A stretch of 29,516 nucleotides of DNA from Candidatus Hadarchaeota archaeon (GTDB taxonomy: Archaea; CAYQAE01; CAYVLA01), in contig CAYVLA010000030.1 of assembly GCA_964452145.1 (NCBI GenBank), positions 1-29,516 of the forward strand. The letters are read 5' to 3'. Below the pieces are notes generated by a model. It saw only the letters and a program-made list of their open reading frames with translations, was not told the DNA's origin and ran no database searches. Made by a program: the position numbers and the translations under genes. Shown one piece after another: positions 6,615 to 24,067 of the stretch. Each line of letters starts with the position of its first letter. The first letter of the stretch is position 1.

Positions 6615-7073
6615 GTGATGCGGACTTACAAGTCCGCGAGTCCTCCCAAACAGTATGTGGGAGGGAAAGAAGCCCCTGCTCAGGGGTTGGAAGGAGGTGT
6701 TGCAGTGAAAGAACCAAGCAGCAAAGAACGGTCAGAATCCGCTGGAAAGGCTCCAGTCAAACTAGCTTCCAAGAAGAAGCCAAGGGAAGTCGGTCAGAAG
6801 GGAGTGATGGCCAAGGTCCGGGCCGCCGAAAGGGAGAGGAAGCGGTTCGCACAGGACGCCAAGGAGATGAGACAGGATGCGAGAAAGATATCTGACGGTG
6901 CCCAGGACTTCTCCCGGAGCATCGCGGCGAAACGCAAAGAGATCCACGCGGGCGCCACCACGATTGTGGACCAGGCAAAGGCAATCGTGGAGGCGGGCAT
7001 CGGATTCCAGAGGGATATTCTTAGATACTGTCAGGAAGTGGGAACCTTCGTCAACGATTTCTACTTTGGCTAA
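6615..7073 (+). CDS. Hypothetical protein (basic N-terminus, helical C-terminus)
   Basis: A 152-aa ORF that is the first gene of a plus-strand cluster. A TATA-like AGTTTTAAGG lies ~25 nt upstream. I recognised no domain. Confidence 0.45.
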   Translation: MMRTYKSASPPKQYVGGKEAPAQGLEGGVAVKEPSSKERSESAGKAPVKLASKKKPREVGQKGVMAKVRAAERERKRFAQDAKEMRQDARKISDGAQDFSRSIAAKRKEIHAGATTIVDQAKAIVEAGIGFQRDILRYCQEVGTFVNDFYFG

Positions 7074-7834: not shown

Positions 7835-8326
7835 ATGACGGAAAGAAGGCAAGAGGAGGACAGGCCGGTTGTGGACATCGGCCTTAACCTGGGAGGCATC
7901 TTCAAGGGGATCGGCGACCTGATCGATCTGGTATCCAAGATGCCCGAGTCGGAGCTCGGGGAAAGCCGCCAGGTGACCAAGGGGGTCTACGGCTTTCAGG
8001 TAAAGGTCGGATGCGCCGGAAGGCCCCTGAGCATCGAGAGGTTTGGCACCCTGAAGCCCCGGACCCCAACAGGCGGAGAAGAAGTGAGGGAGCCCCTCGT
8101 TGACATCTTCGACCAGGGATCCGAGATAGTCGTGATCGCGGAGGTCCCGGGAGTCGAGGAGAAGGACATCAAGATCGAGGTCAAAGAACGCGAGCTGAGG
8201 ATCTCGGCGGAGGGGGAGGGGCGGAAGTACGATAAGACAAGCCAACTCCCGGCGAAGGTGGCCGATGACAGGAAGGTTTCCTGCAGGAACGGCGTCCTCG
8301 AGCTCAGGATGAAAAAGGCAGAATAG
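7835..8326 (+). CDS. Hsp20/alpha-crystallin-family small heat-shock protein (GvpH-like)
   Basis: The alpha-crystallin-domain signature VDIFDQGSEIVVIAEVPGVEEKDIKIEVKERELRISAE...NGVLELRM. It sits adjacent to the gas-vesicle cluster. Confidence 0.8.
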   Translation: MTERRQEEDRPVVDIGLNLGGIFKGIGDLIDLVSKMPESELGESRQVTKGVYGFQVKVGCAGRPLSIERFGTLKPRTPTGGEEVREPLVDIFDQGSEIVVIAEVPGVEEKDIKIEVKERELRISAEGEGRKYDKTSQLPAKVADDRKVSCRNGVLELRMKKAE

Positions 8327-8404: not shown

Positions 8405-8980
8405 TTGGAGGAAGACCTGAGAAGGCAGGTAGAAGAGATCAGGAACGAGATCCTGAAGCTCAAGCGCCAGGTGTCGAGCCAGTTGGGGGATGCCGCAGGG
8501 GCGGAACCGGCCCTGACCGGAAAGGCGGAGACAAGAGGGCTGGTCCTGGACGTCGGGGATTGGATCGAGGACATCCTGGATGCGGTGAAGGCGGGCGTAC
8601 GGGGAGAGATAAGCAGATCGATTTTCATCGGCCTTCCAGGCGTTCAGTCCGGCAAGGCGGCTCCGAAGCGGATCGGGGGAGAAGGCGAACCGAGCCCCCA
8701 GCAGATCGCATCGGTGATGAGCGCCCTAGGGAGCGAACACAGGGTCATGGTCTTGATGGGCCTTTCCCAGGGCGGCAAGTACGCGGGCGAGTTGGAACAG
8801 GAGCTGAAGGAGATAAGCCCAAGCACGCTCTCGGGACATCTAAGGAAGCTGGTGGATGCCGGGCTCATCTCCCAGGATTCCGCCCGCCGCCGGTACCTCA
8901 TCACGATTCCCGGCAGATTCGCACTGGGCATGGCCGTCCGAACCGCGCGTCTTCTGCAACAGGGAGATCGTGAAACCTAG
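8405..8980 (+). CDS. ArsR/SmtB-like winged-helix regulator with an N-terminal coiled coil
   Basis: The C-terminus IASVMSALGSEHRVMVLMGLSQGGKYAGELEQELKEISPSTLSGHLRKLVDAGLI matches the ArsR wHTH. The N-terminus is heptad-like (EEDLRRQVEEIRNEILKLKRQV). The only available start is TTG, and it is in frame with the upstream Hsp20 gene, separated only by a TAG. Confidence 0.55.
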   Translation: MEEDLRRQVEEIRNEILKLKRQVSSQLGDAAGAEPALTGKAETRGLVLDVGDWIEDILDAVKAGVRGEISRSIFIGLPGVQSGKAAPKRIGGEGEPSPQQIASVMSALGSEHRVMVLMGLSQGGKYAGELEQELKEISPSTLSGHLRKLVDAGLISQDSARRRYLITIPGRFALGMAVRTARLLQQGDRET

Positions 8981-9038: not shown

Positions 9039-9626
9039 ATGAGAACGTTGATCCAGATACGTACAATCCACACCCCGTCGGATATGGGTTCGATGAGTGA
9101 TGCCCTCATCCAAGAAACCGTGGACAGGGTGGGCTACAAGAGGTGGAAGCAAAACGCAAGGAAGATCGAAGCGTTCTGGGACAGGCTCGAAGGCAGGATC
9201 CGGGATCTTAACTTGGACTGGCGTGAGGTCAGGATATACCAGGACGGCCTCCCCGACGTCGGAGACGAGATGGGGATCAGGATCGTCCGGGATGCTGCAG
9301 ACAAAGGCAGCCGGAACTACAGGCTGATAAAGGGGCTGGCGGAGCTGGGAGCCAGGATAGAGGGAACGGAGGACCCCCAGCTACTCAAGGGGGAGTACGA
9401 CCACATCGAGGCCATCGCCAACGCGAAATCCGCCAAGGAGAGGGCCGATGCGTGGCGCCGATACGGCTCGGTGAAGAAGGACCTAATCGACAGGCGCGAC
9501 GACTACATCGCGAAGAAGATCCACTTGACGCTCCAAGAGGGCGGGATAGGCCTCCTGTTCATCGGGGCAGCACACGACCTGGCCAGGAGGCTGCCGGAAG
9601 ACATCCAGATCAGGGAACTGTCCTGA
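9039..9626 (+). CDS. Hypothetical protein (195 aa from the internal Met)
   Basis: Protein-like composition. I started the gene at the ATG at 9039 rather than the annotated 8856 start, which overlaps the previous gene. No domain assigned. Confidence 0.5.
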   Translation: MRTLIQIRTIHTPSDMGSMSDALIQETVDRVGYKRWKQNARKIEAFWDRLEGRIRDLNLDWREVRIYQDGLPDVGDEMGIRIVRDAADKGSRNYRLIKGLAELGARIEGTEDPQLLKGEYDHIEAIANAKSAKERADAWRRYGSVKKDLIDRRDDYIAKKIHLTLQEGGIGLLFIGAAHDLARRLPEDIQIRELS

Positions 9627-9648: not shown

Positions 9649-10272
9649 CTACAGTAAAGCATTCGGTGCCGCGCAGACGATCGTGTCATGCTCTAGGCAT
9701 TCACCCGATGCTTCAACCTGACTCCGAAGGGACTGGGCCAGGCAGGATATGTCCGCGGCGTTCAGAAGAAGCGTCGTTCCCGATCTTAGATCGATGCACA
9801 GCCTTTCCAGCGGGGTGCCGATGAAGGTGTCGTCCTTGGCAACCCGCAGTCCCCTGACCTCTCCGAGGGGTATCTCGCGGATAACGCGGGCTGGGCACTT
9901 CGCGGCGAGCACGAGCCGCCTGTCGGTCAGATGGATGTGGGCAGGCCTCCAGGCACAGCTCGGTCCACCATAGCGGTAGGAACCGAACACGCGGAGAGAC
10001 AGCTTCTCGCCTTCGAGGAGGGCAAGGCCCTGGCTCTGGGCGAACTCGTGCCCGTAGTGCCTCCTGACGGTCTCGTCCCATGCCTCCATCATGCCGTACC
10101 TTATCATCGTCTCCATGCCGGCTATCGCAGCTCTAAGGTTGATCCCTATGAGCGGAACGCCGCCCAGGCTTACTATCACGTCTGCGGCGATGATTGCCCC
10201 CTTGTCGAGGATCCTTTCCACCAGGTTGGCTATGGTGCAATCCAGGTTTCGCGTGGGCTGCAATGAGATCAA
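9649..10272 (-). CDS. GvpA/J/M-family gas-vesicle protein fused to a C-terminal ~130-aa PH/GRAM-like domain
   Basis: The N-terminus LVERILDKGAIIAADVIVSLGGVPLIGINLRAAIAGMETMIRYG is the GvpA-fold core. The C-terminus (HLTDRRLVLAAK...EIPLGEVRGLRV...LLLNAADI) looks like a bacterial PH-like domain. It is the last gene of the gas-vesicle (gvp) operon. Confidence 0.7.
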   Translation of the reverse strand: MISLQPTRNLDCTIANLVERILDKGAIIAADVIVSLGGVPLIGINLRAAIAGMETMIRYGMMEAWDETVRRHYGHEFAQSQGLALLEGEKLSLRVFGSYRYGGPSCAWRPAHIHLTDRRLVLAAKCPARVIREIPLGEVRGLRVAKDDTFIGTPLERLCIDLRSGTTLLLNAADISCLAQSLRSQVEASGECLEHDTIVCAAPNALL

Positions 10273-10300
10273 GTCCCCGGCCTAAGCTTGGGATCCAGAT

Positions 10301-11119
10301 CTAGGCCTCCGTGCTCGATCCAGCGAAGGAGAACGGGGCCCATGGCCCCGTGAAGCGAACGGAGAACTCCTCCCGACCGTTGATCGTTTCCAGTTCATCG
10401 CCCAACGACTCAACGTCATCCCTGTGGACCAGGCAGGAGAGGTTAAGGAGCATCTCCATGCCCTCCATTCCCTCCGACGTCCTTGTCTTGGGAGGCTCAA
10501 CCCTGACTTCCTCTGCATGGACGCTTATCCGGCTGTAGAGGTCCTCGCGCAACGTCTCCATCTCCCTGTTCAACAGTTCCTCGACCATGCTCTTGACCCG
10601 CCGCTCCATCATGTATGCGATGCCCTTGGGCTTTGAGCCCAACTCGTTCCTAAGCTTCCTCACCTCTTGGTTGTTCTCCTCGATTCTCCGGCCCGCGGCG
10701 TCCCTGTCCCAGAAGACTTGAACCCCGTACTCGGCCCTGTCCTTGAGCCTATCCAGGTCTTGTTTCAACTCGCCGTAGTGCTCGATCAACCACTCCTCCA
10801 CTCTGCCGTCATCCCCCTTGACTATGGTGTCAAAGCCGAAGGGAAGCACCGTTCCGAACCTCTCGGTTGCCATGTCGACGGTGTGTTGGTGGGCGAGGAT
10901 CCACTGCTTCACGGTTTTTTCATCACCGGACTCGTAGGGCTCGGCTGGGCAAGCGTGGACGATCGCCGCTATCTCTCGGACTGCCACGGCGTAGACCTGT
11001 TCCCTGTTGATCCCTATGGGGCCAAAGCTTGCCCTTGTGCCGGCGTTCACAATGCAGTAGAGGTATCTCCCCTGCGTGGTCCTGTCTCCGTTGGTTCTGG
11101 CTTCGTCCATCTTCCCCAC
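10301..11119 (-). CDS. gvpL: Gas vesicle protein GvpL/GvpF family
   Basis: The N-terminus YLYCIV and the C-terminal signature FTGPWAPFSFA of the GvpF/L family. Confidence 0.85.
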   Translation of the reverse strand: MGKMDEARTNGDRTTQGRYLYCIVNAGTRASFGPIGINREQVYAVAVREIAAIVHACPAEPYESGDEKTVKQWILAHQHTVDMATERFGTVLPFGFDTIVKGDDGRVEEWLIEHYGELKQDLDRLKDRAEYGVQVFWDRDAAGRRIEENNQEVRKLRNELGSKPKGIAYMMERRVKSMVEELLNREMETLREDLYSRISVHAEEVRVEPPKTRTSEGMEGMEMLLNLSCLVHRDDVESLGDELETINGREEFSVRFTGPWAPFSFAGSSTEA

Positions 11120-11123
11120 TCAC

Positions 11124-11453
11124 CTAGGACTGGGTGTTCGGGATCGTTTTCCCCCAGCTCACGGGGTCCATGATCCTGACGACATCTGATGCGATCTCGT
11201 CCAGCCCGTCCCTGACGTCCCGGACGACGCCATCCAGTCCGTGCTCCCTCTTTATCGTCTCGATGGCCTCCTCAAGATCCATCAGGGCCTCGCCCAAGCG
11301 GTTGATCTCCTCCTCGGTCAGGCTTCCCCCCTCCATCCTCCTCATGGCCTGTCCCTGGAGGACGTCCTTGATCACCTCAACCAGCGCGACGACTAGCCCC
11401 AGCAGCCCCCTGCTGAGGTTCTCCTCGTCGATCTCGATCGGCACCTTCATCAT
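11124..11453 (-). CDS. gvpK: Gas vesicle protein GvpK
   Basis: LLGLVVALVEVIKDVLQGQAMRRMEGGSLTEEEINRLGEALMDLEEAIE matches the conserved GvpK pattern. Confidence 0.8.
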   Translation of the reverse strand: MMKVPIEIDEENLSRGLLGLVVALVEVIKDVLQGQAMRRMEGGSLTEEEINRLGEALMDLEEAIETIKREHGLDGVVRDVRDGLDEIASDVVRIMDPVSWGKTIPNTQS

Positions 11454-11495
11454 CCCCTGGAATGCCTCGATGACAAGACGTTCACTCCTCGGTCC

Positions 11496-11855
11496 TCACG
11501 CCGTTGAGATCTCCCTTGCGGTCAGCGGGCTCACCCACCCGCATACCGGGCAGCCCTTCTCAAGAAGAGCATCTTCCTCCCTGCGGTTCCCACATCCCGG
11601 GCAGCTGATCAGGGTCTTCTGGGCCTCCCTCCACCCTGCTGTGTCGAGGTTGGTCCCCGAGGGGAATTCAAGGCCGTACCTTGCAGCCGTATCGAAGGAC
11701 GCAACGGCGGCCCTTATCTTGATGCCCAGCAGCTCGACTCCTGCAAGCGAAACCACTATGTCGGCGTTTATGACCAGTCCCTTGTCCAGGATCCTGTCTA
11801 TGGCACCGGCCAGGCCGCCATTCGTGGACTGCTTGGTCGGGTTAAGACCTGTCAT
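11496..11855 (-). CDS. gvpJ: GvpA/GvpJ-family gas-vesicle protein with a C-terminal C4 zinc ribbon
   Basis: The GvpA core AIDRILDKGLVINADIVVSLAGVELLGIKIRAAVASFDTAARYG, followed at the C-terminus by CPGCG...CPVCG. Confidence 0.8.
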   Translation of the reverse strand: MTGLNPTKQSTNGGLAGAIDRILDKGLVINADIVVSLAGVELLGIKIRAAVASFDTAARYGLEFPSGTNLDTAGWREAQKTLISCPGCGNRREEDALLEKGCPVCGWVSPLTAREISTA

Positions 11856-11866
11856 GATAGCTCCTC

Positions 11867-12214
11867 CTATCTCGGTTTCCAGCGTCGATCCGACGACTTA
11901 CCGTTGCCCTGCCCTTGACGAGGGCCAGCCAGCCTGTCCGTCCTGGTCCTAAGGTCCATGCTTTTCCACTGTTCCGCGAAGTCAAGCTTGGCCAAAAGGT
12001 CGTCCCTTTTCGTTACGTATTCTTCCTCCGATATCTCGCCTAGCTCGTGCAGCATCTGGTTCTCCTTCATCCTGTCTCTCAACACGTCGGGGTCGTACAT
12101 CTGGGAGCATGCAAGATCCCTCAGCCTGGCGAGGAACATCGACCAGGGCATGCCGGTTACCAGGTACCCGGTCAGGTCGATCAGGTCATCGATCACCAAT
12201 ACCGTTGGATCCAC
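11867..12214 (-). CDS. gvpG: Gas vesicle protein GvpG
   Basis: LVIDDLIDL...MYDPDVLRDRMKENQMLHELGEISEEEY matches the GvpG motif pattern. Confidence 0.7.
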   Translation of the reverse strand: MDPTVLVIDDLIDLTGYLVTGMPWSMFLARLRDLACSQMYDPDVLRDRMKENQMLHELGEISEEEYVTKRDDLLAKLDFAEQWKSMDLRTRTDRLAGPRQGQGNGKSSDRRWKPR

Positions 12215-12218
12215 CCCC

Positions 12219-12947
12219 CTACCATCTCGTTCTCCCGCCTCGGGGACCCGATCCCGCTATCTTGATGCTTACGAAGCTGTACGGGGCCCATGGCCCGGTG
12301 TATTGAACCTTCAAGAAGGGGTGCCTGTCATCCAGCTCCCCGAGAACTTGGGAGAACTCTTCCACCCGGGCCTTGTCGACCAAGAAGGACGCGTTCAAGA
12401 CCAGCCTGCTGCTGAAAAGCCTGCCCTCCCTTGACTGTGAGGCCGCCTTCTCCAGCGCGGAGAGGAATTCCGTCGCGGCCTCTTGACGGACTCGATCGTT
12501 TGCCTCCGGGCTGACGTTATCTGGCGAGCCAAACTCTTCCTTGGGCAGGATCACCTTGACGCCGAGCTCAACCTTGCCGTCCACAGCCTCCAGGCTCTTC
12601 ATTATGGCTTCGTAGGACGCCTCCATGACCGAGATCAAGGTCGTTTCATCCTTGAACACCATCCCGAATGCCAGCGGCACAACGGTCGAGTCAGCCATCA
12701 CAACCCTTATCGCCGAGTCGTGGGCCATGGCGTTCTGGGGGTTTGGCTCGTACTCCTTCACCGGCGAGTCGCTCACCACGGCGGCCGCCGCCCTATGGTC
12801 TATCGTGTACACCTCGCCTGAGGTTTCGATGCCGATGTTCCCGAAGCTCCTTCTCATCCCGGTCGATGGGGTGAAGCAGTACACATATCTGCCCTTCATG
12901 TCCTGACCCGACACACCTGACGCCTCCATGTTCCTCGTTGTCTTCAT
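12219..12947 (-). CDS. gvpF: Gas vesicle protein GvpF/GvpL family
   Basis: The N-terminus YVYCF and the C-terminus YTGPWAPYSFV. Confidence 0.85.
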   Translation of the reverse strand: MKTTRNMEASGVSGQDMKGRYVYCFTPSTGMRRSFGNIGIETSGEVYTIDHRAAAAVVSDSPVKEYEPNPQNAMAHDSAIRVVMADSTVVPLAFGMVFKDETTLISVMEASYEAIMKSLEAVDGKVELGVKVILPKEEFGSPDNVSPEANDRVRQEAATEFLSALEKAASQSREGRLFSSRLVLNASFLVDKARVEEFSQVLGELDDRHPFLKVQYTGPWAPYSFVSIKIAGSGPRGGRTRW

Positions 12948-12962
12948 GTTCTTCGTCCCACC

Positions 12963-13856
12963 TCAAGACAGCATCTTTCGCAGCAGGCTGTTCACCTGGA
13001 GCTGATCGGCAAGCATTCCACGGATCTGGCCCTGGCGGTCGCCGTTCGGCCTGTACACCTTCTTCTTTATGCCGTACTCGCATTCCAGCAAGCCCTTGCT
13101 CTGCAGGCTGTGAAGCATCGGGTACATCGTGCCCGGGCTTATCAGGACGTTGAAGTTCTTGTGGATCGTCTTCATGATGTCGATGCCACACATCGGCGTG
13201 TCCATGATCAGGCCCAGCACGACCATGTCAAGGTAGCTTCTGACGAATCTCTCCACGATGGACTGGTCGGCGTTCTCCAGCTCCCCCAGTTCCGGGGATG
13301 AGAGAAGGGTCAGCTCGTTCCTCGTAAGCATCAGTCTGTCGTGACAGGCCGCAAGCTGTCTGGTCATCCCGGCATCCAGCTTGAGAACGTCGTATGTGCA
13401 CAGCACGGAGTGGGCTTGGCCCAAGCTGGACAGCAACTTTTCAACCAGCAGCGCGGCTGGCCTGGCTCCGCGCTTCGCAGACTCGTTGCCTGCGTGATCG
13501 CATGGTCCCGGGCAAAGCGAGGACCCATCCATGACGATCCTCAGCCTGGGCTTTGAGGAGGGGTCCAGATGCTCCACACCATCAAGGTCTACGAAGCCTA
13601 TCGCGATCTCCGGCCTGCCTAGCCGGCTCAACACCGTGTCGGGGTACTCGCCGGTTATGTACACTGCTTCTTGGTCCCGTCCTGAAGCGGCAAGGAAGGC
13701 TACGTGTATCGCGTACTTGTCGGTCGGTGGGGCGTAGAGGTGTAAGACATGTCCAGTTTCCGCGACGCTGGCCAAGAGCCCCGCGATGTCCGTTCTGACG
13801 GTTCGGGCCGTGTGTTGATTGCCGTATCCAGACGCCTGATCCTCCGAGCCAGCCAT
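12963..13856 (-). CDS. Two-domain regulator: an N-terminal MEDS-like sensory domain fused to a C-terminal PadR-family wHTH
   Basis: The C-terminus LGLIMDTPMCGIDIMKTIHKNFNVLISPGTMYPMLHSLQSKGLLECEYGIKKKVYRP is a PadR wHTH. The N-terminus HVLHLYAPPTDKYAIHVAFLAASGRDQEAVYITGE is MEDS-like. It sits inside the gvp operon, separated by 6-nt and 16-nt gaps. Confidence 0.6.
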   Translation of the reverse strand: MAGSEDQASGYGNQHTARTVRTDIAGLLASVAETGHVLHLYAPPTDKYAIHVAFLAASGRDQEAVYITGEYPDTVLSRLGRPEIAIGFVDLDGVEHLDPSSKPRLRIVMDGSSLCPGPCDHAGNESAKRGARPAALLVEKLLSSLGQAHSVLCTYDVLKLDAGMTRQLAACHDRLMLTRNELTLLSSPELGELENADQSIVERFVRSYLDMVVLGLIMDTPMCGIDIMKTIHKNFNVLISPGTMYPMLHSLQSKGLLECEYGIKKKVYRPNGDRQGQIRGMLADQLQVNSLLRKMLS

Positions 13857-13861
13857 CTGGG

Positions 13862-16081
13862 TTAAACCCCCTTTCCCACCTTCGGGGAGCCCGTTCCTGC
13901 GAAACTGCGCGCGATCTCCTCGAACCGGTTTAAGTTCTTCTGCAGGGCAACTGGTCTTAGGGATCTCATAGCCACATCGAAGTGCTTTCTCGAGATCGCG
14001 ATGCCCTTCAGGTTCTCCTTCGTGGGGAGGCGGCCCTTGCTCCCCTTCATGAACTCCCTGAGCGCGAGCATCGCCGCTCGCCTGCAGAGGGCCTCGATGT
14101 CCGAGCCAACGTATCCATCCATTGCCCTGGCAAGCTCCTTCTCGTCCACATCTGGGGCCAGGGGCTTCCCGGCCAGATGGACGCGGAGGATCTCGCTTCG
14201 CTCCCTCTCGTCTGGTATCGGCACGTGGATGAGCCTCTCCAATCTGCCGGGACGCAAGAGCGCTGGGTCCACCAGGTCGGGGCGATTGGTGGCCGCCAAG
14301 ACGACAACCTCCTTCATATCCTCTATCCCGTCAAGCTCGCTTAGGAGCTGGCTGACAACCCTGTCGGCCACCGGCGAGTAGGGGCTGCCGGAGCGGCTTT
14401 GGGCCAGGGATTCGATCTCGTCGAAGAATACGATGGCGGGCGCAACCTGTTTCGCCTTCCTGAAGATCTCCCTAACGGCCCTCTCCGATTCCCCCACGTA
14501 TCTGTTGAAGAGCTCCGGGCCCTTGATGGCGATGAAGTTGGTTTGGCTCTCCGTAGCCACCGCCTTTGCCAGCAGGGTCTTGCCGGTCCCTGGGGCTCCA
14601 AAGAGCAGTATCCCGCTTGGGGGTCTGGTTCCCAGCATCTCGAATGCCTCCGGGTACTTTAGCGGCCACTCCACCGCCTCCACCAGCTCCGTCTTGGCTT
14701 CCTCCAATCCCCCGACGTCACCCCACCTCACCTTGGGAACCTCGACGAAGACCTCTCTCATCGCGCTTGGCTCCACATTCTTCAGGGCATGGTCGAAGTC
14801 CTTCCTGGTGACCCTGACCTCGTCGAGGACCTCGGGCGGGATCTCCTTTTCGATGTCGATCTTGCGCGCGATCTTGCGTAGGGCGTGCATCGCCGCCTCC
14901 TTGCAGAGGGAGGCTATGTCCGCGCCCACGAACCCATATGTCACGTCCGCCAGATCCTCGAGATCGATGTCCTCGGCCAGCGGCATCCCCCTGGTGTGTA
15001 TCTGGAGTATCTCCATCCTTCCGTTTCGGTCTGGTACCCCGATCTCGATCTCGCGGTCGAACCTGCCACCCCGTCTCAGGGCCTCGTCTATCAGCTCGGG
15101 CTTGTTGGTGGCGGCGATGACTATCACCTCTCCTCGAGATTTCAGCCCGTCCATGAGTGCCAGAAGCTGTGCCACCACCCGCCTTTCCACCTGCTTCTCG
15201 CCGCTGACATCCTCCCTTTTGGGAGCGATAGAATCGAACTCGTCGATGAAGATTATGGCCGGCGAGTTTGCCTCCGCCTGTTGGAAGATCTGTCTGATCC
15301 TCTCCTCGCTTTCACCGTAGTACTTTGCCATGATCTCGGGCCCGCTGACGAAGATGAAGTTGGCAAAGGTCTCGTTTGCCACCGCCTTTGCGATCAGGGT
15401 CTTTCCCGTTCCCGGCGGTCCGTACAGCAAAACCCCCTTGGGCGGCTCTATACCTATCCGCTGGAAGAGCTCGGGACGCCTGAGGGGGAGCTCCACCATC
15501 TCACGTACGAGGTCTATCTCGCGCCTGAGGCCGCCGATGTCCTCGTAGGTGATCCTGGTCGGCTTTCTCTCCTCAACCACCTCGGTGCTTACCACTACCT
15601 GGGTGGTGCGGGAGACCAGGACCGTGCCGGAGGGCTCGGTGACCGTCACGGTGAAGGTCAGGGGGTTACCGAGGATCTGCATTCCTATGGTTTGTCCTTT
15701 CACCACGGGGCGGCCCTCCAGAACCCGGCGAACGTAGTCGGCCCCGCCCGCTATCTTGATCCGTTGGTTGGGGCTAACCGTGATCTTCTTTGCTTTTCTG
15801 GCTTCTGCCTGTCTGACGGTGACCTTGTCGTCTATGCCGGCTTGCAGGTTGCCCCTGATGCTTCCGTCAACCCTCAGGATCTGCCGCCCGGCGTCCTCCG
15901 GATAGCCGGGCCACGCAATCGCCGGCACTGGGACCTTTCCTTCGATCTGGACCACGTCACCGCTGACTAGGCCGAGTTGGCCCATCAGCGAGGCATCGAT
16001 TCTCGCAATCCCTCTGCCTACGTCCCGGGGGCGGGCCTCTGCAATGCGCAGCACCGCCTCCGAAGCCTGTCCGGATGTCAT
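13862..16081 (-). CDS. cdc48: CDC48/VCP-family double-AAA+ ATPase (N-domain plus D1 and D2)
   Basis: Two Walker A motifs ([16 protein letters not shown]), second-region-of-homology (SRH) regions and a CDC48-type N-domain, for 739 aa in total. It is embedded in the gvp operon. Confidence 0.9.
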
Positions 16082-16100
16082 CGTGATCCTTCCGCCTTCC

Positions 16101-16484
16101 TTAACGTCTTGCCAAACGTCGCTTCTGACATCGAGGAGATCTCGTAACCAAAGATCCGTTCCACCTAACTGGTCGCTGTTGCCCTCCGGTCTGAGGGAAC
16201 CTTCGGGTTCCTCTCAGCTTCTGGTACGCGTTCACGATTCCAAGCCTCCGCTTGATGGTGGCCACGTTTGCCATGTGCTTTCTCTTCGCGGCCAGCTGTT
16301 GGGCCCTGGCACGCCCTATCATCTCTTGGATGCTCGCCGTGCCCCTCTTCTTCCTCTTCTTCCTGTTCCCAACGGATGTCCACCTTGTAGACGTGCTCAA
16401 TTCTGTCACATCCCAGATCTTGGCCATGGCCTGGTTGTCCGTCCGGCATCCCCTTTGCTGAGGAGTCCTCCTTGAACGCCGCAC
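16101..16484 (-). CDS. Small, highly basic hypothetical protein (GTG start; possibly shorter, starting at the MAKIWDV Met); a candidate GvpI-like protein
   Basis: An R/K-rich 127-aa ORF packed ~20 nt from both gvpO and cdc48, which argues for operon membership. The alternative 110-aa frame is low-complexity E/G-rich. It has no recognisable domain. Confidence 0.4.
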
Positions 16485-16503
16485 CTCTTTTGTTCACAAG
16501 CCC

Positions 16504-16890
16504 CTAACGTAGATTCTCGCCCGGTCGAAGATCGCATCGGTGTCTGAGACACAGCCGCCTATATCCCAGAACCTCGCCCCTGTCGTTCATCCTGATCTCG
16601 TATTCGCCGAGGATGTCCTGGGTGTCGGGAACCGCCTTCCTCTCGATGCTCTCGACCACCACGAGCCATTGGTCCCCGTCCTTCTCCACGCCGATGACGT
16701 CGGTTGCTCTCTTGTTCGTGCTGAGGAGACTGTCAAGCACCTCAAGCCCTTTGCGCCCTATGTCCCCGATGGGAATGGGGCTGCCCAGTGGCTCCTCGGC
16801 CAGGAGGTCCTCGACCTCAGGGAATGCTTTCGATCCCGTAGGACGAACCCTTTCTTTCACAGCTTCGTCGGCTTCGGCCATTCTTCTCAC
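16504..16890 (-). CDS. gvpO: Gas vesicle protein GvpO
   Basis: VIGVEKDGDQWLVVVESIERKAVPDTQDILGEYEIRMNDRGEVLGYRRL matches the conserved GvpO C-terminal pattern. It overlaps gvpN by 4 nt. Confidence 0.7.
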   Translation of the reverse strand: MRRMAEADEAVKERVRPTGSKAFPEVEDLLAEEPLGSPIPIGDIGRKGLEVLDSLLSTNKRATDVIGVEKDGDQWLVVVESIERKAVPDTQDILGEYEIRMNDRGEVLGYRRLCLRHRCDLRPGENLR

Positions 16891-17924
16891 CCTGCTTGTC
16901 TGCTCCTTCGTAGTGCCTTCTCTACGAGTCCCTTCTTCCGTTTCAGGTCGTCAAGTCCTTTAGTCTTTGAAGTCAGAACGTCCAAGATCAACTGTTCCAG
17001 ATCGGCTGGGCCACGATCATCAAGTCGCTCAAGTGCTCGTGCAACCATTATGCAGGCGCGAGTCCCGGGCCTCTCGCCTTCGTCCAACTCTTTTCTGAGA
17101 GCTCTGAAGATCTCCACGATCTTCCTTGCTTCACCCTCGGCCAGCCCTGTATGGGCCGTAACGATCCGAACCTCCGTGTCTAGACCGTAGTAGTCCATGC
17201 ACAGACCCACAATGCGGTCGAGAAGAGCATCTTGCGCCCTGTGTATGCCGGCATATTCGACGGAGTTGCTGGTGAGAATCGCCCTGAAGTTGGGGTCTAC
17301 CTTCACGTACCTCTTCTGCCCGGCCATTGTTGGGAGTTCTAGGATCCTCTCCTCAAGGACCGAGAGGAGGACGTTGTTCGCTTCCGGCTTGGCTCTGGAG
17401 AATTCGTTGTAGACGAAGGTGTATCCGTGCTTGCACGCGATGGTTAATGGGTTGTCGACCCAGATCGCGCGCATCATGTCCCTACCCTTGAAGACGTTGT
17501 GGACGAATCTGTCTCGGTATGTCTGTTGCTCAAATTCCTTGTAACTTCCGACGAGATCTTCAGTGGTGATCTGGTCGTCTCCGTTCACCCACGTGACGGG
17601 CCGACCAAGTTCGTACGCTATCTCCATCGCCAGCGTGGTCTTGCCGCATCCCGTTGGTCCGATTATGTGAATCGGGCAGCCAGCCGACAGCCATCGCATC
17701 GCGCGGCTCTTGATATCCTTCACTTCACCCGTTTCAACGAACAGCGGGCGGTTTGGGGCAAGGTGTTCAGGCTCAACCGGGTTGACATCCCAGGTCTCTG
17801 GCCCCGCCGGGTTCTCAGCTGCTGCTGATGCCAGTCGCCCAGAACCATGTAGCGAGTGTGGGGGATCTTCCAGCAACGTTTGCCCAACGGCCCTTCTTCT
17901 GGATACCGATCTTTCGACTCTCAT
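16887..17924 (-). CDS. gvpN: Gas vesicle protein GvpN (CbbQ/NirQ/MoxR-like AAA ATPase)
   Basis: Walker A IIGPTGCGKTTLA and Walker B DEFSRA, with a length typical of GvpN. It lies directly downstream of gvpA. Confidence 0.9.
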   Translation of the reverse strand: MRVERSVSRRRAVGQTLLEDPPHSLHGSGRLASAAAENPAGPETWDVNPVEPEHLAPNRPLFVETGEVKDIKSRAMRWLSAGCPIHIIGPTGCGKTTLAMEIAYELGRPVTWVNGDDQITTEDLVGSYKEFEQQTYRDRFVHNVFKGRDMMRAIWVDNPLTIACKHGYTFVYNEFSRAKPEANNVLLSVLEERILELPTMAGQKRYVKVDPNFRAILTSNSVEYAGIHRAQDALLDRIVGLCMDYYGLDTEVRIVTAHTGLAEGEARKIVEIFRALRKELDEGERPGTRACIMVARALERLDDRGPADLEQLILDVLTSKTKGLDDLKRKKGLVEKALRRSRQAG

Positions 17925-18112
17925 TGTTCACACCAACTCCAATCTTGCGCCCACCTGCACAATTGTTCCATGCCACATAGACCCAGGAGCCCGGCCGTTT
18001 TCCCATTTACCTCAGTCTGAGGAGAGACGGTTCTCGTAACGAAACTCGATACAGAACCCCATCTTATTTGACGGTCATTGCGGATTCTTGTGATTCAGCA
18101 GCCGGGTGGCTT

Positions 18113-18156
18113 TCGAGAAAAAGGGGAGGACCCATGCTTTGGGCGTGGGCCTCCCA
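18113..18156 (-). terminator. Hairpin plus oligo-T attenuator/terminator between gvpA and gvpN
   Basis: On the plus strand GGGAGGaCCCA-(11-nt loop)-TGGGCCTCCC forms a stem of ~10 bp with one bulge. It is immediately preceded by GAGAAAAAG, which reads as CTTTTTCTC after the hairpin on the transcribed minus strand. It lies ~40-80 nt after the gvpA stop. Confidence 0.4.
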
Positions 18157-18195
18157 CCGAGAGAAGGGGCGGCGTTACTCTCAGAGTCCCCTCAG

Positions 18196-18417
18196 CTATG
18201 CGGCGGGGGCGCTGATCGTGGCTTGCTCTATCTTGGCCATCTCTTCAGCGTAGTGCAGGTAGGTGTCGACTGATGCGACGACCACTCTGGCCTCAACGCT
18301 CAAGATCTCGATGCCGACCAAGGACACCCTGACCCAGGCATCGATAACCACGCCTTTGTCCAGGATCCTGTCCAGCACCTCAGCAAGGCTGGAAACATCC
18401 GGCTGTTGCGTTACCAT
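18196..18417 (-). CDS. gvpA: Major gas vesicle structural protein GvpA
   Basis: [48 protein letters not shown] is a near-canonical GvpA, 73 aa. A GGAGGTGA ribosome-binding site lies 7 nt before the ATG. Confidence 0.92.
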
Positions 18418-18487
18418 TTGCTTTTCACCTCCGATAATTGTTTGGGATAACTGCGGACTCCTAGGCCCGTGGGCTAAGGTATCTGCT

Positions 18488-18506
18488 AATGGTATAAAAA
18501 TATCAC
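18488..18506 (-). promoter_or_regulatory. Candidate gvpA promoter TATA box
   Basis: On the minus strand GTGATATTTTTATACC lies ~75 nt upstream of the gvpA ATG. The same TTTTTATAC motif recurs before abiEi and the IS transposase. Confidence 0.45.
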
Positions 18507-18679
18507 GGATAATCGGCGCGGGATTTGCAACTTTTCACAATGATAAGGGCTGCACGGGAAGACACGCTTCAAGGACTGCCGTAGAAGGGCGGAGCACATC
18601 GACGAGGCGCAATAATCATAGGATACTGGTACTCGGACCTAGGTCTGTCTTGGTCGCTCCTAGAGCAATCTGGACAGTT

Positions 18680-19420
18680 TCACCAGACAGTCAACGTGCC
18701 TCCCATAGTCCAGGAACCTGCAGTAATAGGGGTCGTAGTACTTGGCAGACCTGCGAAAAGGCTCCCCCACAAACCCATCATGTCTATCCATCCGCAGAAA
18801 CGCCCAAGCAACAGCAACCATCGTGGACATGTCAGGGGTTTACCCAGTCTTACGGGCGGCGATGAATATGTGTAGGCCGTCCTTGTTTTGAGGTCTCGGT
18901 ACAGGGCTTTCTCGATGGCCGCTATCTTGTCTGTGTTCTGTCTGGCGAACTCGGCAAGCTTCATAGCTTCCAGGAATCGTTCGTCGAGCAGCATGTTAGG
19001 CACAACATCGGGTGACATCCCATAGACGAGCTTGTGCAGGTTGCCCAGAGAGGCGGTTCGAAGGATGCTTAGATCGGCTTCTCGGAACAGTTTCTCAAGA
19101 TCTTCGATGTCGAAGAACCATGCCACCTTTCCTTCCCTCGATACGGACTCCTTCTCGACCAGAGCCTCCATGAGTGTAGGTGTGTGGAGGGCGTAGGAAG
19201 GTACTACTGTGCCGTCACCAAGGCTTGTCTTCACACCCATCCCCTGGATAAGGATCTCCTCGCTCTGAAGGTCGATCCTTTTGCCATCCTTGGTGTGGTC
19301 GTAGAAGAGCTCTAAACGATCCCGGCCTTCCAGCAGGGCAGCTATTCGCCCGGACGGATCTAGGAAGATCATCTCTTTGATCTGTTTCTTGTCCGCATCG
19401 TATCTTCTCTCAAGGAGCAC
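18680..19420 (-). CDS. Hypothetical protein, possibly with a C-terminal hydrophobic segment
   Basis: A 246-aa ORF that is protein-like for most of its length. The last ~60 aa are W/G/L-rich, which could be a TM helix or a frameshifted tail. Confidence 0.4.
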   Translation of the reverse strand: MLLERRYDADKKQIKEMIFLDPSGRIAALLEGRDRLELFYDHTKDGKRIDLQSEEILIQGMGVKTSLGDGTVVPSYALHTPTLMEALVEKESVSREGKVAWFFDIEDLEKLFREADLSILRTASLGNLHKLVYGMSPDVVPNMLLDERFLEAMKLAEFARQNTDKIAAIEKALYRDLKTRTAYTYSSPPVRLGKPLTCPRWLLLLGRFCGWIDMMGLWGSLFAGLPSTTTPITAGSWTMGGTLTVW

Positions 19421-19518: not shown

Positions 19519-20004
19519 ATGCCATGGAGTTCGGAGGATGGGATGCTTACGGTATATCTGGTTGCGAAGGAGGATGTCTTCCTCTTCAAAGGGCTAAGTG
19601 AAGGAGAGCTCGACTTGGAGGATATGCGGATTATCGCAGAGAGCGGGGTTGACTGGGGGACAGTAATTCGGGAATGCATCGCCCAATCTGAATCATCCGA
19701 ATCCGTATGGGAAGCCTTCCTCTACGATAGGCTGGTCGAACTCGAGGAGAAATATGGGATCAACGCGCCTGTCAGCAACAAACTCAGAAAGATAGCCGAA
19801 GAGAAGATGGCTCAGAGAATGCTGATCAGGAAGATAGGGGAGGGGAAAGACACCGTGAGAGAGATCGCGGAGGAGTCGGAGTTCTCCGAGTCGTGGGTGA
19901 GGATAGAGCTTGACAAGCTAGCCAAGAAGAGACTTCTCACGGTTGACAAGAGCAAACGTCCTTACCATTACCAACTGCAACAGAAGACCCCATTGGCTGG
20001 GTGA
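19519..20004 (+). CDS. Hypothetical protein with a possible C-terminal winged-helix
   Basis: A 161-aa ORF. The C-terminus DTVREIAEESEFSESWVRIELDKLAKKRLLTV is HTH-like. Confidence 0.4.
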   Translation: MPWSSEDGMLTVYLVAKEDVFLFKGLSEGELDLEDMRIIAESGVDWGTVIRECIAQSESSESVWEAFLYDRLVELEEKYGINAPVSNKLRKIAEEKMAQRMLIRKIGEGKDTVREIAEESEFSESWVRIELDKLAKKRLLTVDKSKRPYHYQLQQKTPLAG

Positions 20005-20205
20005 GGCTTCGCATCAGCTCAGCAACACCAGAGCGTATCGTGCTTGCCCGGAGATAGTGGTGGCCCGGCAGGCCGTCAAGACACGCATTTGGAGATGGGG
20101 AGTTTCTCGCAGAACCGGTGGACAGCCCGGCTGATTCAGTGCCGGGAGCTGATTGACTCAGTTCTGCGGCACGCCCGGAGAGAAAGAAAGCGATCCATCA
20201 GGTTC

Positions 20206-20913
20206 CTACCCTGTGTACCCGCACATTCCAACACGCGGGGAGTTGACCACTGGGAGGAGCATATCTTCGCCGCAGGGGTGCTTGCGCCCACACTTGTTGC
20301 AGAGCCATCCCCCGTCATCCCAGATGCATTGACTGCAGACCCGCGTGGCGATCTTCCCGCATGCGTTGCATATGATCAAAGGGGGGTCATTTCTCGCCAG
20401 CAGCTGAATCGCCCTGCCACTGGCCTTGCCTTGCCGTTCTCCCACCACCTTCAATCTGAGCTCTGTCGTGGTCCCGAAGTCGTACTCGTAGTCGAACTTC
20501 AGCCCGGGAGAGAGGACCTTGTTCAGGGCGACATCCATATTCCTCCCGCCGGGCACAAGGCCTACGCCTATCCACATCGCGTCTATCCCTGCGCCGGCTA
20601 TGTACCTTCTTTCCTGTATTGTGAACGCGCTCATATGTCCGCAACACTCCACCCAGGTGTCCCTGAGGAAACCGTCCAGGTCCCTAAGCGTTGCTCTAGA
20701 TGGTGCTTCGAGGTGCATCCAATACTGGGGGAGGTAGCTCCCTTCCACCGTGATATGGAGCAGCATCGTTCTCCTCTCGCTGCGCTTGTCCCGCGATAAC
20801 GGTAGCGTGGGGTCCCGTTTCCTGCATGCTCGCAGGTGTCTAGTCATGGCCGCCTTCCCGAAGCTGGACCTGCAGAGCTCGCACCGTCCTTTCGACGTCC
20901 TCCTCTCTGCCAT
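20206..20913 (-). CDS. pRiA4b ORF-3-like family protein with N- and C-terminal zinc-ribbon motifs
   Basis: The pattern MLLHITVEGSYLPQYWMHLEAPSRATLRDLDGFLRDTWVECCGHMSAF ... FDYEYDFGTTTELRLKVV matches the PRiA4_ORF3 pattern (L.I.L.g..P.iWRr...L.dLH..iq...gW...HLH.F ... Y.YDFGD.W.H). The cysteine clusters are CELC...HLRAC and CNACG...CSQC...CNKCG. Confidence 0.55.
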   Translation of the reverse strand: MAERRTSKGRCELCRSSFGKAAMTRHLRACRKRDPTLPLSRDKRSERRTMLLHITVEGSYLPQYWMHLEAPSRATLRDLDGFLRDTWVECCGHMSAFTIQERRYIAGAGIDAMWIGVGLVPGGRNMDVALNKVLSPGLKFDYEYDFGTTTELRLKVVGERQGKASGRAIQLLARNDPPLIICNACGKIATRVCSQCIWDDGGWLCNKCGRKHPCGEDMLLPVVNSPRVGMCGYTG

Positions 20914-21183
20914 TCCTTCGACACCATGCCTCCCGCTCTCCCTACACTCTTAACGGTATCGAATGCGGAATGCGGTGTCAGTGACGCCGATCCCGGGGGG
21001 CCTTCCGCGTCACAGTCACAGGATGGCGGAATCGCTGTTGACAGAGGCTCTGAGACGCATCAAAGCGGCTCCGGCCCGCGGTCGATGACGAGAGAAGCGT
21101 TGTTCTGGTCTTGGAAAGTAAGTAGGACAAGAATCGGAAAAGGTCCCGGGGCTCTGAGAAAACGCGGATCTTCACCCCGTGTA

Positions 21184-21212
21184 ATCTTTTTATACGGTTT
21201 GTATATAACTTA
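21184..21212 (+). promoter_or_regulatory. Promoter of abiEi with tandem TATA boxes and a short or leaderless transcript
   Basis: CTTTTTATACGG sits at -32 and TGTATATAAC at -18 relative to the ATG at 21218. Confidence 0.45.
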
Positions 21213-21217
21213 GTTAC

Positions 21218-21952
21218 ATGGAAAGTACATCGGTGTCCAGGCGAGAAGGGGAGGTCGTCCACCAGATCAGGTCAAGGGATATGGTGATATTCACGGCCCG
21301 GGACATAGGCAGATTTCTGAAAACGTCGAGGGTGAACACCCACCGCATAATCTCCAGCATGAAGAAAAAGGGACTGATGAAGAGCGTGGAGAGGGGCAAG
21401 TACGTGCTGACCGAGGCCTGGGAAGAGCTGGACGTCTACGAGATAGTGCCCGAGATATTCAAACCTTCCTATATCGGTTTCTGGAGCGCCCTCCATTACC
21501 ACAACATGACCGATCAGGTGCCGAGAACGGTGTTCGTGGCGACGACCAAGAGGAAGAAGCCACTCCAACTGCAGGGGCAGACGATAAGATACGTTACGAT
21601 CAAGAGTCGCCTCTTCTTCGGCTACCAGCGGTTCGGGAAGGCGCTCGTGTCGGACAGGGAGAAGACGGTCATCGACTGCCTTGGCCATTTGGAGTATTCG
21701 GGGGGCATCGGCCAGGTATACGAGGCCGTAACGGACCAACTCGACCCGGGAAAGATGGTGGACTACTGCCTGAGAACAGGAAGCTCGGCCATAGCGTCCC
21801 GGCTGGGATACCTCATGGAGAGAAAGGGACTCGATTTCGAGAAAGACGGACTCAAGGCAATGCTACGTACCTACGCCAAGCTGGACTCCGGGGGAGGGTA
21901 CTCGGACCTAGTACGGGATTGGAAGCTCTACGTGAACAAGGAGATAGCATGA
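21218..21952 (+). CDS. abiEi: AbiEi-family antitoxin/transcriptional regulator (type IV toxin-antitoxin/abortive infection)
   Basis: An N-terminal wHTH region and a COG5340-like body. It overlaps the following AbiEii gene by 4 nt. Confidence 0.75.
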   Translation: MESTSVSRREGEVVHQIRSRDMVIFTARDIGRFLKTSRVNTHRIISSMKKKGLMKSVERGKYVLTEAWEELDVYEIVPEIFKPSYIGFWSALHYHNMTDQVPRTVFVATTKRKKPLQLQGQTIRYVTIKSRLFFGYQRFGKALVSDREKTVIDCLGHLEYSGGIGQVYEAVTDQLDPGKMVDYCLRTGSSAIASRLGYLMERKGLDFEKDGLKAMLRTYAKLDSGGGYSDLVRDWKLYVNKEIA

Positions 21953-22722: not shown

Positions 22723-23184
22723 TGCCAACGCGCAGGAGGCGCCTCGCGTCGGGAATCGGTTGGACCCCTCCTCTTTTCAACCCGTCTTGCCTGGGACCTT
22801 CTCCTATGGATTCCCTCTCTCCCTTCTCCCCTTCCCCTACTCCATTAGATCATCCTTCGCCCGGATGGCCGGCTTGATTGTCCCCAGGCAACTGGTGGCC
22901 TTGTGAACCGTCCGGCAAGATGGTCCGAACCCCGACATGAGACGTTGAAGCATCGCTGCTTTGACCCATCTTTTGTTACCCCTCTTCTACACAGCAAGGC
23001 AGCAAGGTGAGACTTCTTCAACCTGCCTCGTGGTCCGTCGGTGGCCAAGTCGTAGGACACTTGCCATCGCCAGATGGGCCGGCATGGGAACTTGCAGAAG
23101 CGCGGTCGGCGGACTCCTTTCGCGCAGATTCTAGCCCAGTTCGTCTATGCCCGATCTGACAATCATGTAACGGTGCCAGATCTC

Positions 23185-24066: not shown

Positions 24067-24067
24067 C

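Follow-up and report, generated by a model that had tools for sequence, protein, structure and literature searches.

Why would an archaeal gas-vesicle operon encode, in its middle, a double-ring unfoldase of the CDC48 family? The question is raised by contig CAYVLA010000030.1 of a Candidatus Hadarchaeota archaeon (assembly GCA_964452145.1), whose 29,516 nucleotides (nt), referred to here as the window, carry twelve open reading frames (ORFs), all on the minus strand, between positions 9649 and 18417. An earlier note, made from the letters alone, had placed these ORFs at the same coordinates and read them as a gas-vesicle protein (gvp) operon with an embedded CDC48, a MEDS-PadR regulator and a small basic protein. 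Searches against Pfam and NCBIfam profiles identify 11 of the 12, the exception being the basic ORF, and the gene order is gvpA-N-O-[basic ORF]-CDC48-[MEDS-like::PadR]-F-G-J-K-L-[GvpM::PH-like], as follows (lengths in amino acids, aa):

18196..18417, minus strand: gvpA, the major gas-vesicle shell protein, 73 aa (Pfam Gas_vesicle, E=4.4e-17)
16887..17924, minus strand: gvpN, a MoxR-type AAA+ ATPase (TIGR02640, 345.6 bits, cut-off 266.8; AAA_5)
16504..16890, minus strand: gvpO (Pfam GvpO, E=1.1e-17)
16101..16484, minus strand: putative small, very basic protein, 127 aa, isoelectric point (pI) about 12; a weakly supported orphan ORF
13862..16081, minus strand: CDC48/VAT-type double-ring AAA+ unfoldase, 739 aa (TIGR01243, 1011.4 bits, cut-off 802.65, residues 10-726)
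12963..13856, minus strand: one-component regulator, 297 aa, in which a MEDS-like N-domain of degenerate RecA/KaiC-like type precedes a PadR winged helix
12219..12947, minus strand: gvpF (Pfam GvpL_GvpF, E=3e-51)
11867..12214, minus strand: gvpG (Pfam GvpG, E=1e-12)
11496..11855, minus strand: gvpJ (Gas_vesicle, E=7e-16), with a C-terminal CxxC...CxxC zinc-ribbon tail
11124..11453, minus strand: gvpK (Pfam GvpK, E=1e-20)
10301..11119, minus strand: gvpL (NF045778, 223 bits, cut-off 200)
9649..10272, minus strand: GvpM-like N-domain (Gas_vesicle, E=2e-13) with a putative PH-like (GLUE/GRAM-type) C-domain, 207 aa

We consider it highly probable that the window CDC48 is a dedicated component of the gvp cluster and not a housekeeping gene that happens to be its neighbour. 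The broader reading is that the window holds a complete gas-vesicle locus, from an uncultured archaeon of the Halobacteriota that is related to methanogens, in which CDC48 and the MEDS-like::PadR regulator are integral, conserved genes, and that CDC48 would act as a proteasome-independent unfoldase or disaggregase for GvpA-family proteins, next to a PadR-type regulator; taken as a whole, mechanism included, we regard its chances as evenly balanced.

The linkage between CDC48 and gvp genes was approached from both sides. From the CDC48 side, a scan of genome collections gave 40 CDC48-anchored loci. Here and below, loci were picked up through short peptide patterns and do not sample genomes at random, and the names of taxa are those given by the submitters of the metagenome-assembled genomes (MAGs). 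In 8 of the 40, gvp genes lie at most 10 kb from CDC48, a result for which a rough placement model gives a chance of about 2e-8. These linked loci are L001 (Methanocellales), L005, L019 (Altiarchaeota) and those of five Planctomycetota MAGs (L014, L020, L022, L024 and L037). In L001 the gene order is A-N-O-CDC48, and its GvpA is 81% identical to that of the window. A protein search with the window CDC48 returned one identical sequence, the next best being at most 69% identical, and the best match among species-representative genomes was 67% identical. All eight of the nearest homologues that were looked up lie within gvp clusters:

L041 (P0003): GvpA-39aa-N-O-175aa-CDC48-PadR-F-G-J-K-L-GvpA-like, the architecture of the window
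L044 (P0005): N-122aa-O-CDC48-PadR-F-G-G-HSP20...J-J...K-L
L043, L045, L048 and L050 (P0011, P0014, P0021 and P0057): CDC48 at the far end of the cluster, adjoined by an ArsA ATPase in L045, L048 and L050
L049 (P0055), from a Thermoplasmatota MAG: gvp genes in two divergent sets, together with HSP70 and a fusion of GvpL to DnaJ
L046 (P0022): CDC48 directly after J-K-L-F

From the gvp side, metagenomes were searched with an alignment of GvpK, so that CDC48 played no part in the retrieval, and 80 loci resulted. The share with CDC48 grows with the visible length of the cluster: the gene is encoded in 14 of the 29 that span at least 8 kb, in 9/12 of those of at least 12 kb and in 7/8 of those of at least 16 kb (one of the 14 CDC48s is a fragment at a contig edge). 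The loci carrying it range from 35 to 56% GC, so many organisms must be involved. CDC48 thereby behaves as a near-constant component of this class of gvp clusters.

Could the gene nevertheless be an ordinary housekeeping CDC48 that came to lie in the operon by chance, with no tie to gas vesicles? The window protein is indeed a canonical CDC48 by every profile and is only slightly nearer to linked than to unlinked relatives. However, the linkage recurs from both directions, across phyla and at varying positions within the clusters, the chance expectation is the very small one given above, and a separate copy is found in a related MAG. This copy, P0031 (L047), falls outside the linked group, has an ordinary gene context, ends in the HbYX tail discussed below and comes from the same MAG, JASEEV01, as the linked L001; that organism therefore carries a housekeeping CDC48 plus a gvp CDC48. 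The earlier note had asked in advance whether the 739-aa protein is a sole housekeeping CDC48 with a promoter of its own and no gvp neighbours in relatives. What was found is a second, unlinked CDC48 in a related MAG, no TATA-like element in front of the window gene, and gvp genes beside CDC48 in all eight nearest homologues, in Planctomycetota and Altiarchaeota MAGs and in the GvpK-anchored loci. A chance passenger is, consequently, something we hold to be extremely improbable.

The signals for transcription point in the same direction. The following two elements flank gvpA:

18493..18500, minus strand: TATA-like element of archaeal type, TTTTTATA, some 75 nt 5' of the gvpA ATG
18117..18155, minus strand: GC-rich hairpin followed by CUUUUUC (a run of five T), 3' of gvpA within the gvpA-gvpN gap (centroid fold)

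TTTTTATA is the sole match to TTTWTAWM on the minus strand within the cluster, and a ribosome-binding site, GGAGGTGA, lies just 5' of the gvpA ATG; a scan with the same pattern in front of CDC48, on its own strand, found no TATA-like element. The gaps of 3-40 nt that had been claimed throughout the operon run from -4 to 42 nt between gvpN and the last gene, with gvpO and gvpN overlapping by 4 nt, but the gvpA-gvpN gap measures 271 nt when the longest gvpN ORF is taken. The true gvpN start may lie further downstream, because homology begins near residue 50. The genes from gvpN to the last one are presumably co-transcribed. As for the hairpin after gvpA, its fold is energetically not unusual (z=-1.06) and it may be an attenuator or a terminator; a hairpin with partial read-through is what would be expected for a highly expressed gvpA. 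A terminator scan gave results at or below shuffle expectation, and an operator search upstream of gvpA turned up no more than a direct repeat of 8 nt and an imperfect inverted repeat of 10 nt, neither of them convincing. A sigma-70 promoter scan was set aside as not applicable to an archaeon.

The gvp assignments on which the linkage depends were checked by profile search, and the ORFs flanking CDC48 do match Gvp profiles. The accessory genes gvpF/L, G, K, N and O all pass Pfam cut-offs, GvpN and GvpL pass NCBIfam equivalog cut-offs as well, and three proteins, GvpA, GvpJ and the GvpM-like one, carry the Gas_vesicle domain (E=4e-17, 7e-16 and 2e-13). Halobacterium has eight essential gvp genes (A, F, G, J, K, L, M and O), all of which are present here, and gvpC, gvpD and gvpE are absent from the cluster. 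The zinc-ribbon tail of GvpJ gives weak matches to DUF7560 and to the HVO_0416 zinc finger. For the last gene, which the earlier note had read as a J/M::PH fusion, the two halves fared differently. The N-domain is GvpM-like, its best likeness being to haloarchaeal GvpM (85.6 bits, under the 109-bit cut-off). The PH part rises above cut-off only in homologues: no PH-superfamily profile of Pfam matches the C-terminal 128 aa of the window protein, but the full-length homologue in L044 passes Vps36 (33.5 vs 24.1 bits) and GRAM (29.1 vs 23.6), and that in L045 passes Vps36 GLUE (27.4 vs 24.1 bits). The window protein aligns end to end with the L045 orthologue (39% identity, E=2e-42) and is homologous over its full length to the L041 orthologue too.

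Does the CDC48 protein itself bear marks of a special role? Its Pfam domains are those expected (CDC48_N, E=5e-24; CDC48_2, E=7e-16; two AAA and two AAA_lid_3), with the motifs GPPGTGKT, IIFIDEFD and KYYG in the first ring (D1) and GAPGTGKT, IVFFDEIE and RYVG in the second (D2). The Walker A and B motifs and the aromatic pore loops of both rings are kept in all linked copies, which look like active threading motors from their sequences. The tail is different. The window protein ends in ...VGKGV and is without HbYX, the motif with a penultimate Y or F. Among the top 120 CDC48 homologues, a neighbour-joining (NJ) clade of 47 sequences contains every linked archaeal copy; a penultimate Y or F occurs in 4/47 of its members vs 57/69 outside (p=3e-16), where typical tails are -AYA, -MYV and -TYA. 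In the GvpK-anchored loci, the motif is found in none of 14 complete, uninterrupted CDC48 C-termini. Additionally, all 12 of the unlinked copies that were examined have Ser just ahead of the pore-loop lysine of D1, where the window protein has Ala; in the GvpK-anchored set this residue is A, H, G or N, and Ser in 0/14, which argues for some specialisation. A shared D1 signature, MAKYYG, was discarded as partly artefactual, PEIMAKYY having been one of the patterns by which the CDC48 loci were retrieved.

The relationships of these proteins follow the same division, up to a point. When L001 and L005 are counted, copies of assessed context are 10 linked and 0 unlinked inside the NJ clade and 1 linked and 21 unlinked outside (Fisher p=1.7e-7). 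The Planctomycetota copies, together with one Patescibacteria copy, form a separate, well-supported deep clade, which groups further with L019 and L021 of Altiarchaeota. The CDC48s of haloarchaeal megaplasmids, recovered by a plasmid search, are at most 56% identical to the window protein.

Several observations weigh against a specialised and indispensable gvp CDC48. The evidence for an extra copy comes from JASEEV01, a related Methanocellales MAG, and not from the source genome itself. HbYX is also absent from many archaeal CDC48 paralogues outside gvp clusters. The NJ tree groups the archaeal linked copies with a bootstrap of only 131/200, and identity of the window CDC48 to its relatives is only 61-69% throughout, whether they are linked or unlinked. 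L001 is nearer to its unlinked genome-mate L047 (79% identity) than to other linked copies, for which reason CDC48 may have been recruited more than once and its specialisation may be shallow. In view of the weak NJ support and of this similarity, a single origin of a gvp-specific CDC48 clade is not claimed. The proposed function is drawn from guilt by association. Finally, Halobacterium, Anabaena, B. megaterium and Serratia assemble vesicles without a cluster CDC48 (PMC9501494), so the protein must be an accessory and not a universally required factor.

How could CDC48 serve the gas vesicle? Since it has no HbYX tail it would not dock onto the 20S proteasome, and most likely it acts on its own. 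It would thread and unfold, or disaggregate, the hydrophobic and aggregation-prone GvpA, GvpJ and GvpM or their assembly complexes, with the HSP20 holdase of the cluster and, possibly, a conserved protein that we call c194 as partners. The outcome would be that subunits are kept competent for insertion into the growing shell and that mis-assembled material is removed. We infer both the substrate and the direction of action. The candidate partners, and a third gene lying between them, are encoded just past the end of the operon:

7835..8326, plus strand: HSP20/alpha-crystallin, a GvpH-like holdase (Pfam HSP20, 25.9 bits, cut-off 20.8)
8405..8980, plus strand: ArsR/HTH_20-type regulator (HTH_20 and HTH_5, E about 4e-9), start uncertain
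9039..9626, plus strand: c194, a conserved protein of 195 aa that converges on the operon end, with a predicted EreA/ChaN/TIKI/TraB fold

The window HSP20 shares 62% identity with its counterpart next to the L041 cluster, matches were seen in 78 of the loci fetched, and an HSP20 gene stands directly upstream of CDC48 in 9 of the 14 CDC48-carrying GvpK-anchored loci. The functional gvp locus, in consequence, probably extends beyond 9649-18417, because the HSP20 and ArsR-type genes lie just past the operon and HSP20 precedes CDC48 in many related loci. For the ArsR-type protein, no homologue was found in the fetched loci, so its membership in the system is uncertain. The HSP20-CDC48 pair is also found away from gvp genes: on pNRC200 of Halobacterium salinarum (L131, 164190-166840), the one haloarchaeal megaplasmid locus inspected, Hsp20 immediately precedes CDC48, and in L047 CDC48 is followed by HSP20. 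Given the pNRC200 pair, Hsp20-CDC48 looks like a general, pre-existing holdase-unfoldase module that gvp clusters have captured.

Such a module could simply buffer stress, that is, be co-expressed with gvp genes against the load of hydrophobic protein, without any specific Gvp substrate or adaptor. The two pairs away from gvp genes would fit this, as would the small sequence differences between linked and housekeeping copies and the proteotoxic stress that is reported to follow heterologous vesicle expression (PMC12848028). Against it, the pairing is kept across clusters of Halobacteriota, Thermoplasmatota, Altiarchaeota and Planctomycetota, HbYX is consistently lost among linked copies, and the residue before the D1 lysine, Ser in all 12 unlinked proteins, is Ser in none of the 14 GvpK-anchored ones. 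On balance, we think it unlikely that general buffering is the whole function.

c194 brings up a different possibility. It has 120 homologues, all of them annotated as hypothetical, including one in Enhydrobacter aerosaccus, a gas-vacuolate bacterium. The gene is present in 25 of the fetched loci (besides the window, L020, L022, L024, L025, L037, L062, L069, L082 and L108 may be named). Eighteen loci encode both c194 and CDC48, and in 9 of these the two genes are co-oriented direct neighbours. An AlphaFold2 (AF2) model with a mean pLDDT (predicted local distance difference test) of 93 confidently predicts a compact member of the EreA/ChaN/TIKI/TraB fold superfamily, in which H11 is nearly invariant and E111 and H179, the latter in a G-A-x-H motif, are invariant. 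c194 could possibly be a cofactor or hydrolase partner of CDC48. If it were a protease, CDC48 might serve active disassembly or recycling, pulling GvpA from collapsed or unwanted vesicles for c194 to degrade or process, with ATP-driven loss of buoyancy as the result. The loss of HbYX fits a partner protease other than the proteasome, the co-oriented adjacency in 9/18 loci and the three conserved residues are in keeping with such a role, and the fold superfamily includes proteases such as RRSP, TIKI being another. The same fold, however, also includes the non-proteolytic, haem-binding ChaN and the esterases EreA/EreC; catalysis by c194 is putative, deduced from fold and residues; the c194 gene of the window is read from the other strand and lies 4.2 kb away from CDC48; and linkage does not tell help in assembly from disassembly. 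Disassembly as the function of CDC48 strikes us as rather doubtful, and assistance in assembly, as outlined above, is the reading that we prefer, although neither disassembly nor stress buffering can be separated from it by sequence. A still more ambitious version, of which we are similarly doubtful, would join the three proteins: HSP20, a proteasome-independent CDC48 and a c194 hydrolase might form an ATP-driven machine that extracts GvpA-family subunits from mis-assembled or collapsed shells, in a large and mostly uncultured class of archaeal and bacterial clusters.

Other chaperone and ATPase genes occur in related clusters, among them ArsA, HSP70 and the GvpL-DnaJ fusion; ArsA and Hsp20 occur among the relatives L045, L048, L049 and L050. 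HSP70 is encoded in 12/29 GvpK-anchored loci, and in the Thermoplasmatota gvp cluster L049 the GvpL/GvpF-DnaJ fusion (18114-19106) stands beside HSP70, which suggests that Hsp70 is recruited directly to the GvpF/L assembly platform. In L046, on a contig labelled as a Halobacteriota archaeon, genes for sigma-54 DNA-binding and Pup-ligase proteins (19647-22133) lie beside the gvp-CDC48 cluster; the contig may be bacterial or mis-binned, and the finding hints at a transfer of the whole module between domains.

What, then, is the regulator next to CDC48? The earlier call of a MEDS-PadR protein stands for its second half, the PadR domain reaching 32.5 bits (Pfam cut-off 27, residues 213-269). MEDS (PF14417) is sub-threshold in the window protein, at 21.2 bits vs a gathering cut-off of 29.8 and over residues 132-172 only, though it recurs across the family: of 24 proteins, at most 45% identical to that of the window, 23 match it at E<=1, the best at 2.4e-7. 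The AF2 model (mean pLDDT 77) has an N-terminal alpha/beta domain for which Foldseek returns RecA/KaiC-type ATPases (FlaH 4yds, E=7e-5; Rho, RAD51 and RadA), and a C-domain that matches PadR structures with TMt of 0.71-0.80. The loop after strand 1 reads PPTDKY (family consensus PNVNKY), without the P-loop GxxGxGK[ST] of a Walker A motif, and an invariant Asp closes the Walker-B-like strand. The window protein has no GvpD or GvpE profile match, and none of the 24 family members matches the GvpD profile at E<=1. Homologues stand directly upstream of gvpF in L041, L042, L043, L044, L045, L048, L049 and L050, so that the co-occurrence of MEDS-like::PadR with gvp genes, which the earlier note had suggested looking for, is indeed seen in eight related loci; a PadR gene is found in 3/29 GvpK-anchored loci. 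It is probable that the protein binds DNA through its winged helix; the degenerate RecA/KaiC-like domain would provide the input signal, and the regulator would fill the role that GvpD/GvpE have in haloarchaea. We infer its regulatory targets. In L050, CDC48 is directly followed by a KaiC-type ATPase gene (PF06745) and another PadR gene (12707-14543); the RecA/KaiC-like and PadR parts, fused in the window regulator, are there divided between two genes.

It might be argued that CDC48 acts on this neighbour, setting the level or the activity of the MEDS-like::PadR protein much as GvpD drives the loss of GvpE. GvpE is degraded when GvpD is present (PMC9501494), the regulator N-domain shares the RecA/KaiC fold class, and the two genes are close, with a gap of 5 nt in the window and overlaps of 4-11 nt in L041 and L044. 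By contrast, L043, L045, L048 and L050 have CDC48 remote from the PadR gene, at the other end of the cluster, and the loci from Planctomycetota yielded no homologue of the PadR protein. We prefer a role in assembly to a regulatory one because CDC48 is common without a PadR gene (14 vs 3 of 29 loci) and because the relative position of the two genes varies, and a regulatory unfoldase seems to us very unlikely.

The basic ORF between gvpO and CDC48 is the weakest part of the earlier call. It matches no Pfam or NCBIfam family, phmmer found no homologue among 1.84 billion representative proteins, and tblastx and tblastn against all fetched loci gave nothing at database-level E-values. Its codon-usage log-ratio is -0.06, vs 0.37-0.96 for the other eleven genes, and gene calling on a Logan assembly that contains this sequence preferred an overlapping 110-aa frame. 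Its one support comes from L041, which has the identical gene order and an ORF of 175 aa (pI 11.6) in the same slot; about 40 residues of the two align (BLASTP E=3e-5 in a single targeted pairwise comparison), with a score reached by 1/2000 composition-preserving shuffles (p=0.0005). We regard the ORF as probably real and fast-evolving. No GvpI match was found for it in the Pfam and NCBIfam scans, it is not similar to the basic ORF that L043 has where gvpI would be, and its likeness to haloarchaeal GvpI is one of size, charge and cluster location only.

The remaining features of interest in the window lie further from the operon:

6615..7073, plus strand: protein of 152 aa ending in ...NDFYFG (tblastn match to L001 903-1241, E=5.7e-5; weak support)
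20206-20913: PRiA4_ORF3-like protein
21218-22722: AbiEi/AbiEii toxin-antitoxin pair
23185-27187: SWIM zinc-finger protein and SNF2/DUF3670 helicase

The first of these resembles the ORF that follows gvpA, in the gvpC position, in L001 (870-1241), L043 (2305-2826) and L045. The proteins share a C-terminal motif, NDFY[FY]G / KDFYYG, those of the relatives ending in ...DFYYG and having internal repeats, and the window protein may associate with the shell in the manner of GvpC, though its gene is not next to gvpA. The others belong to a region upstream of the cluster (20206-27187) with many mobile or defence-type genes, and the gvp locus may sit in a variable part of the genome. At 3020-3096 on the plus strand, Rfam reports a transfer RNA (tRNA) barely above threshold (30.6 vs 29 bits), and ARAGORN reports none in the window.

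How the 3-nm GvpA shell comes together, and whether cells are able to take it apart actively, are open questions, and a 2024 interaction study calls the assembly process elusive (PMC11445434). CDC48 is a candidate for a missing chaperone or segregase step, being a second and much more powerful threading motor that is conserved in most fully visible clusters of the class, where HSP20 and c194 are recurrent partners. The matter has a practical side, as gas vesicles are used as acoustic reporters and proteotoxic stress limits their heterologous expression (PMC12848028). Were the three-protein extraction machine real, cells would actively control the quality of, and turn over, an organelle whose removal is otherwise put down to pressure collapse and dilution alone, and the poor expression of many mined clusters in heterologous hosts without these genes would be explained. 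The MEDS-like::PadR protein, in turn, may be the regulator of methanogen-type clusters, from which gvpDE are said to be missing. A CDC48 without HbYX, in one operon with its candidate clients, also offers a tractable case of proteasome-independent CDC48 function in prokaryotes, including Planctomycetota.

How does the locus compare with known systems? The archaeal CDC48/VAT proteins, which Barthelme and Sauer are said to have described in 2012 as the unfoldase of a Cdc48-20S proteasome, share with the window protein CDC48_N and CDC48_2, the two rings, Walker A/B and the aromatic pore loops; the window protein differs in its missing HbYX tail, in its place in a gvp operon and in having Ala, not the housekeeping Ser, before the D1 lysine. 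The pairing of HSP20 with CDC48 recalls the bi-chaperone disaggregation carried out by small heat-shock proteins (sHsps) with Hsp100 (ClpB/Hsp104). In both, a small holdase gene goes with a double-ring AAA+ threading motor; the likeness would be one of analogy, as the AAA+ families differ and no Hsp70 is encoded in the window. GvpD/GvpE resemble the window regulator in tying a RecA/KaiC-type domain to the control of gvp transcription and in being encoded just upstream of gvpF, from which the window regulator departs in that one chain carries both the degenerate P-loop and the PadR winged helix.

Known gvp clusters are arranged as gvpAAA-NOFG-JHKLM in M. barkeri and as gvpACNO plus gvpDEFGHIJKLM in Halobacterium (PMC9501494). 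The same 2022 review describes GvpN as the AAA ATPase and GvpD/E or GvrA-C as regulators, in agreement with the account given in the earlier note, states that methanogen clusters lack gvpDE, and does not mention CDC48. With these methanogen and haloarchaeal clusters the window shares the set A, N, O, F, G, J, K, L and M, a nearly identical order (N-O-F-G...J-K-L-M), gvpA in first place followed by a terminator-like hairpin (as after Halobacterium gvpA) and an associated, GvpH-like HSP20. It is unlike them in having no gvpC/D/E, in carrying CDC48 and MEDS-like::PadR between gvpO and gvpF, in the probable fusion of GvpM to a PH-like domain, in the zinc ribbon of GvpJ, and in having HSP20 on the opposite strand together with c194. 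A search of full-text literature, in which most subscription journals are not covered, found no paper tying CDC48 or PadR to gvp clusters. For bacterial clusters, Castillo and Saier listed in 2010 gvpFGJKLMNOW, hsp20 and arsA, and no CDC48, PadR or c194 (PMC2963123). Those ArsA/Hsp20 clusters likewise embed ATPase and chaperone genes, which were read as energising a step of biogenesis (PMC2963123), although the window, unlike them, is without ArsA. ArsA and Hsp20 had been noted in 2010 (PMC2963123); the present analysis would add a class of gvp clusters that carry a module of CDC48, HSP20 and c194 along with a regulator of the MEDS-like::PadR type.

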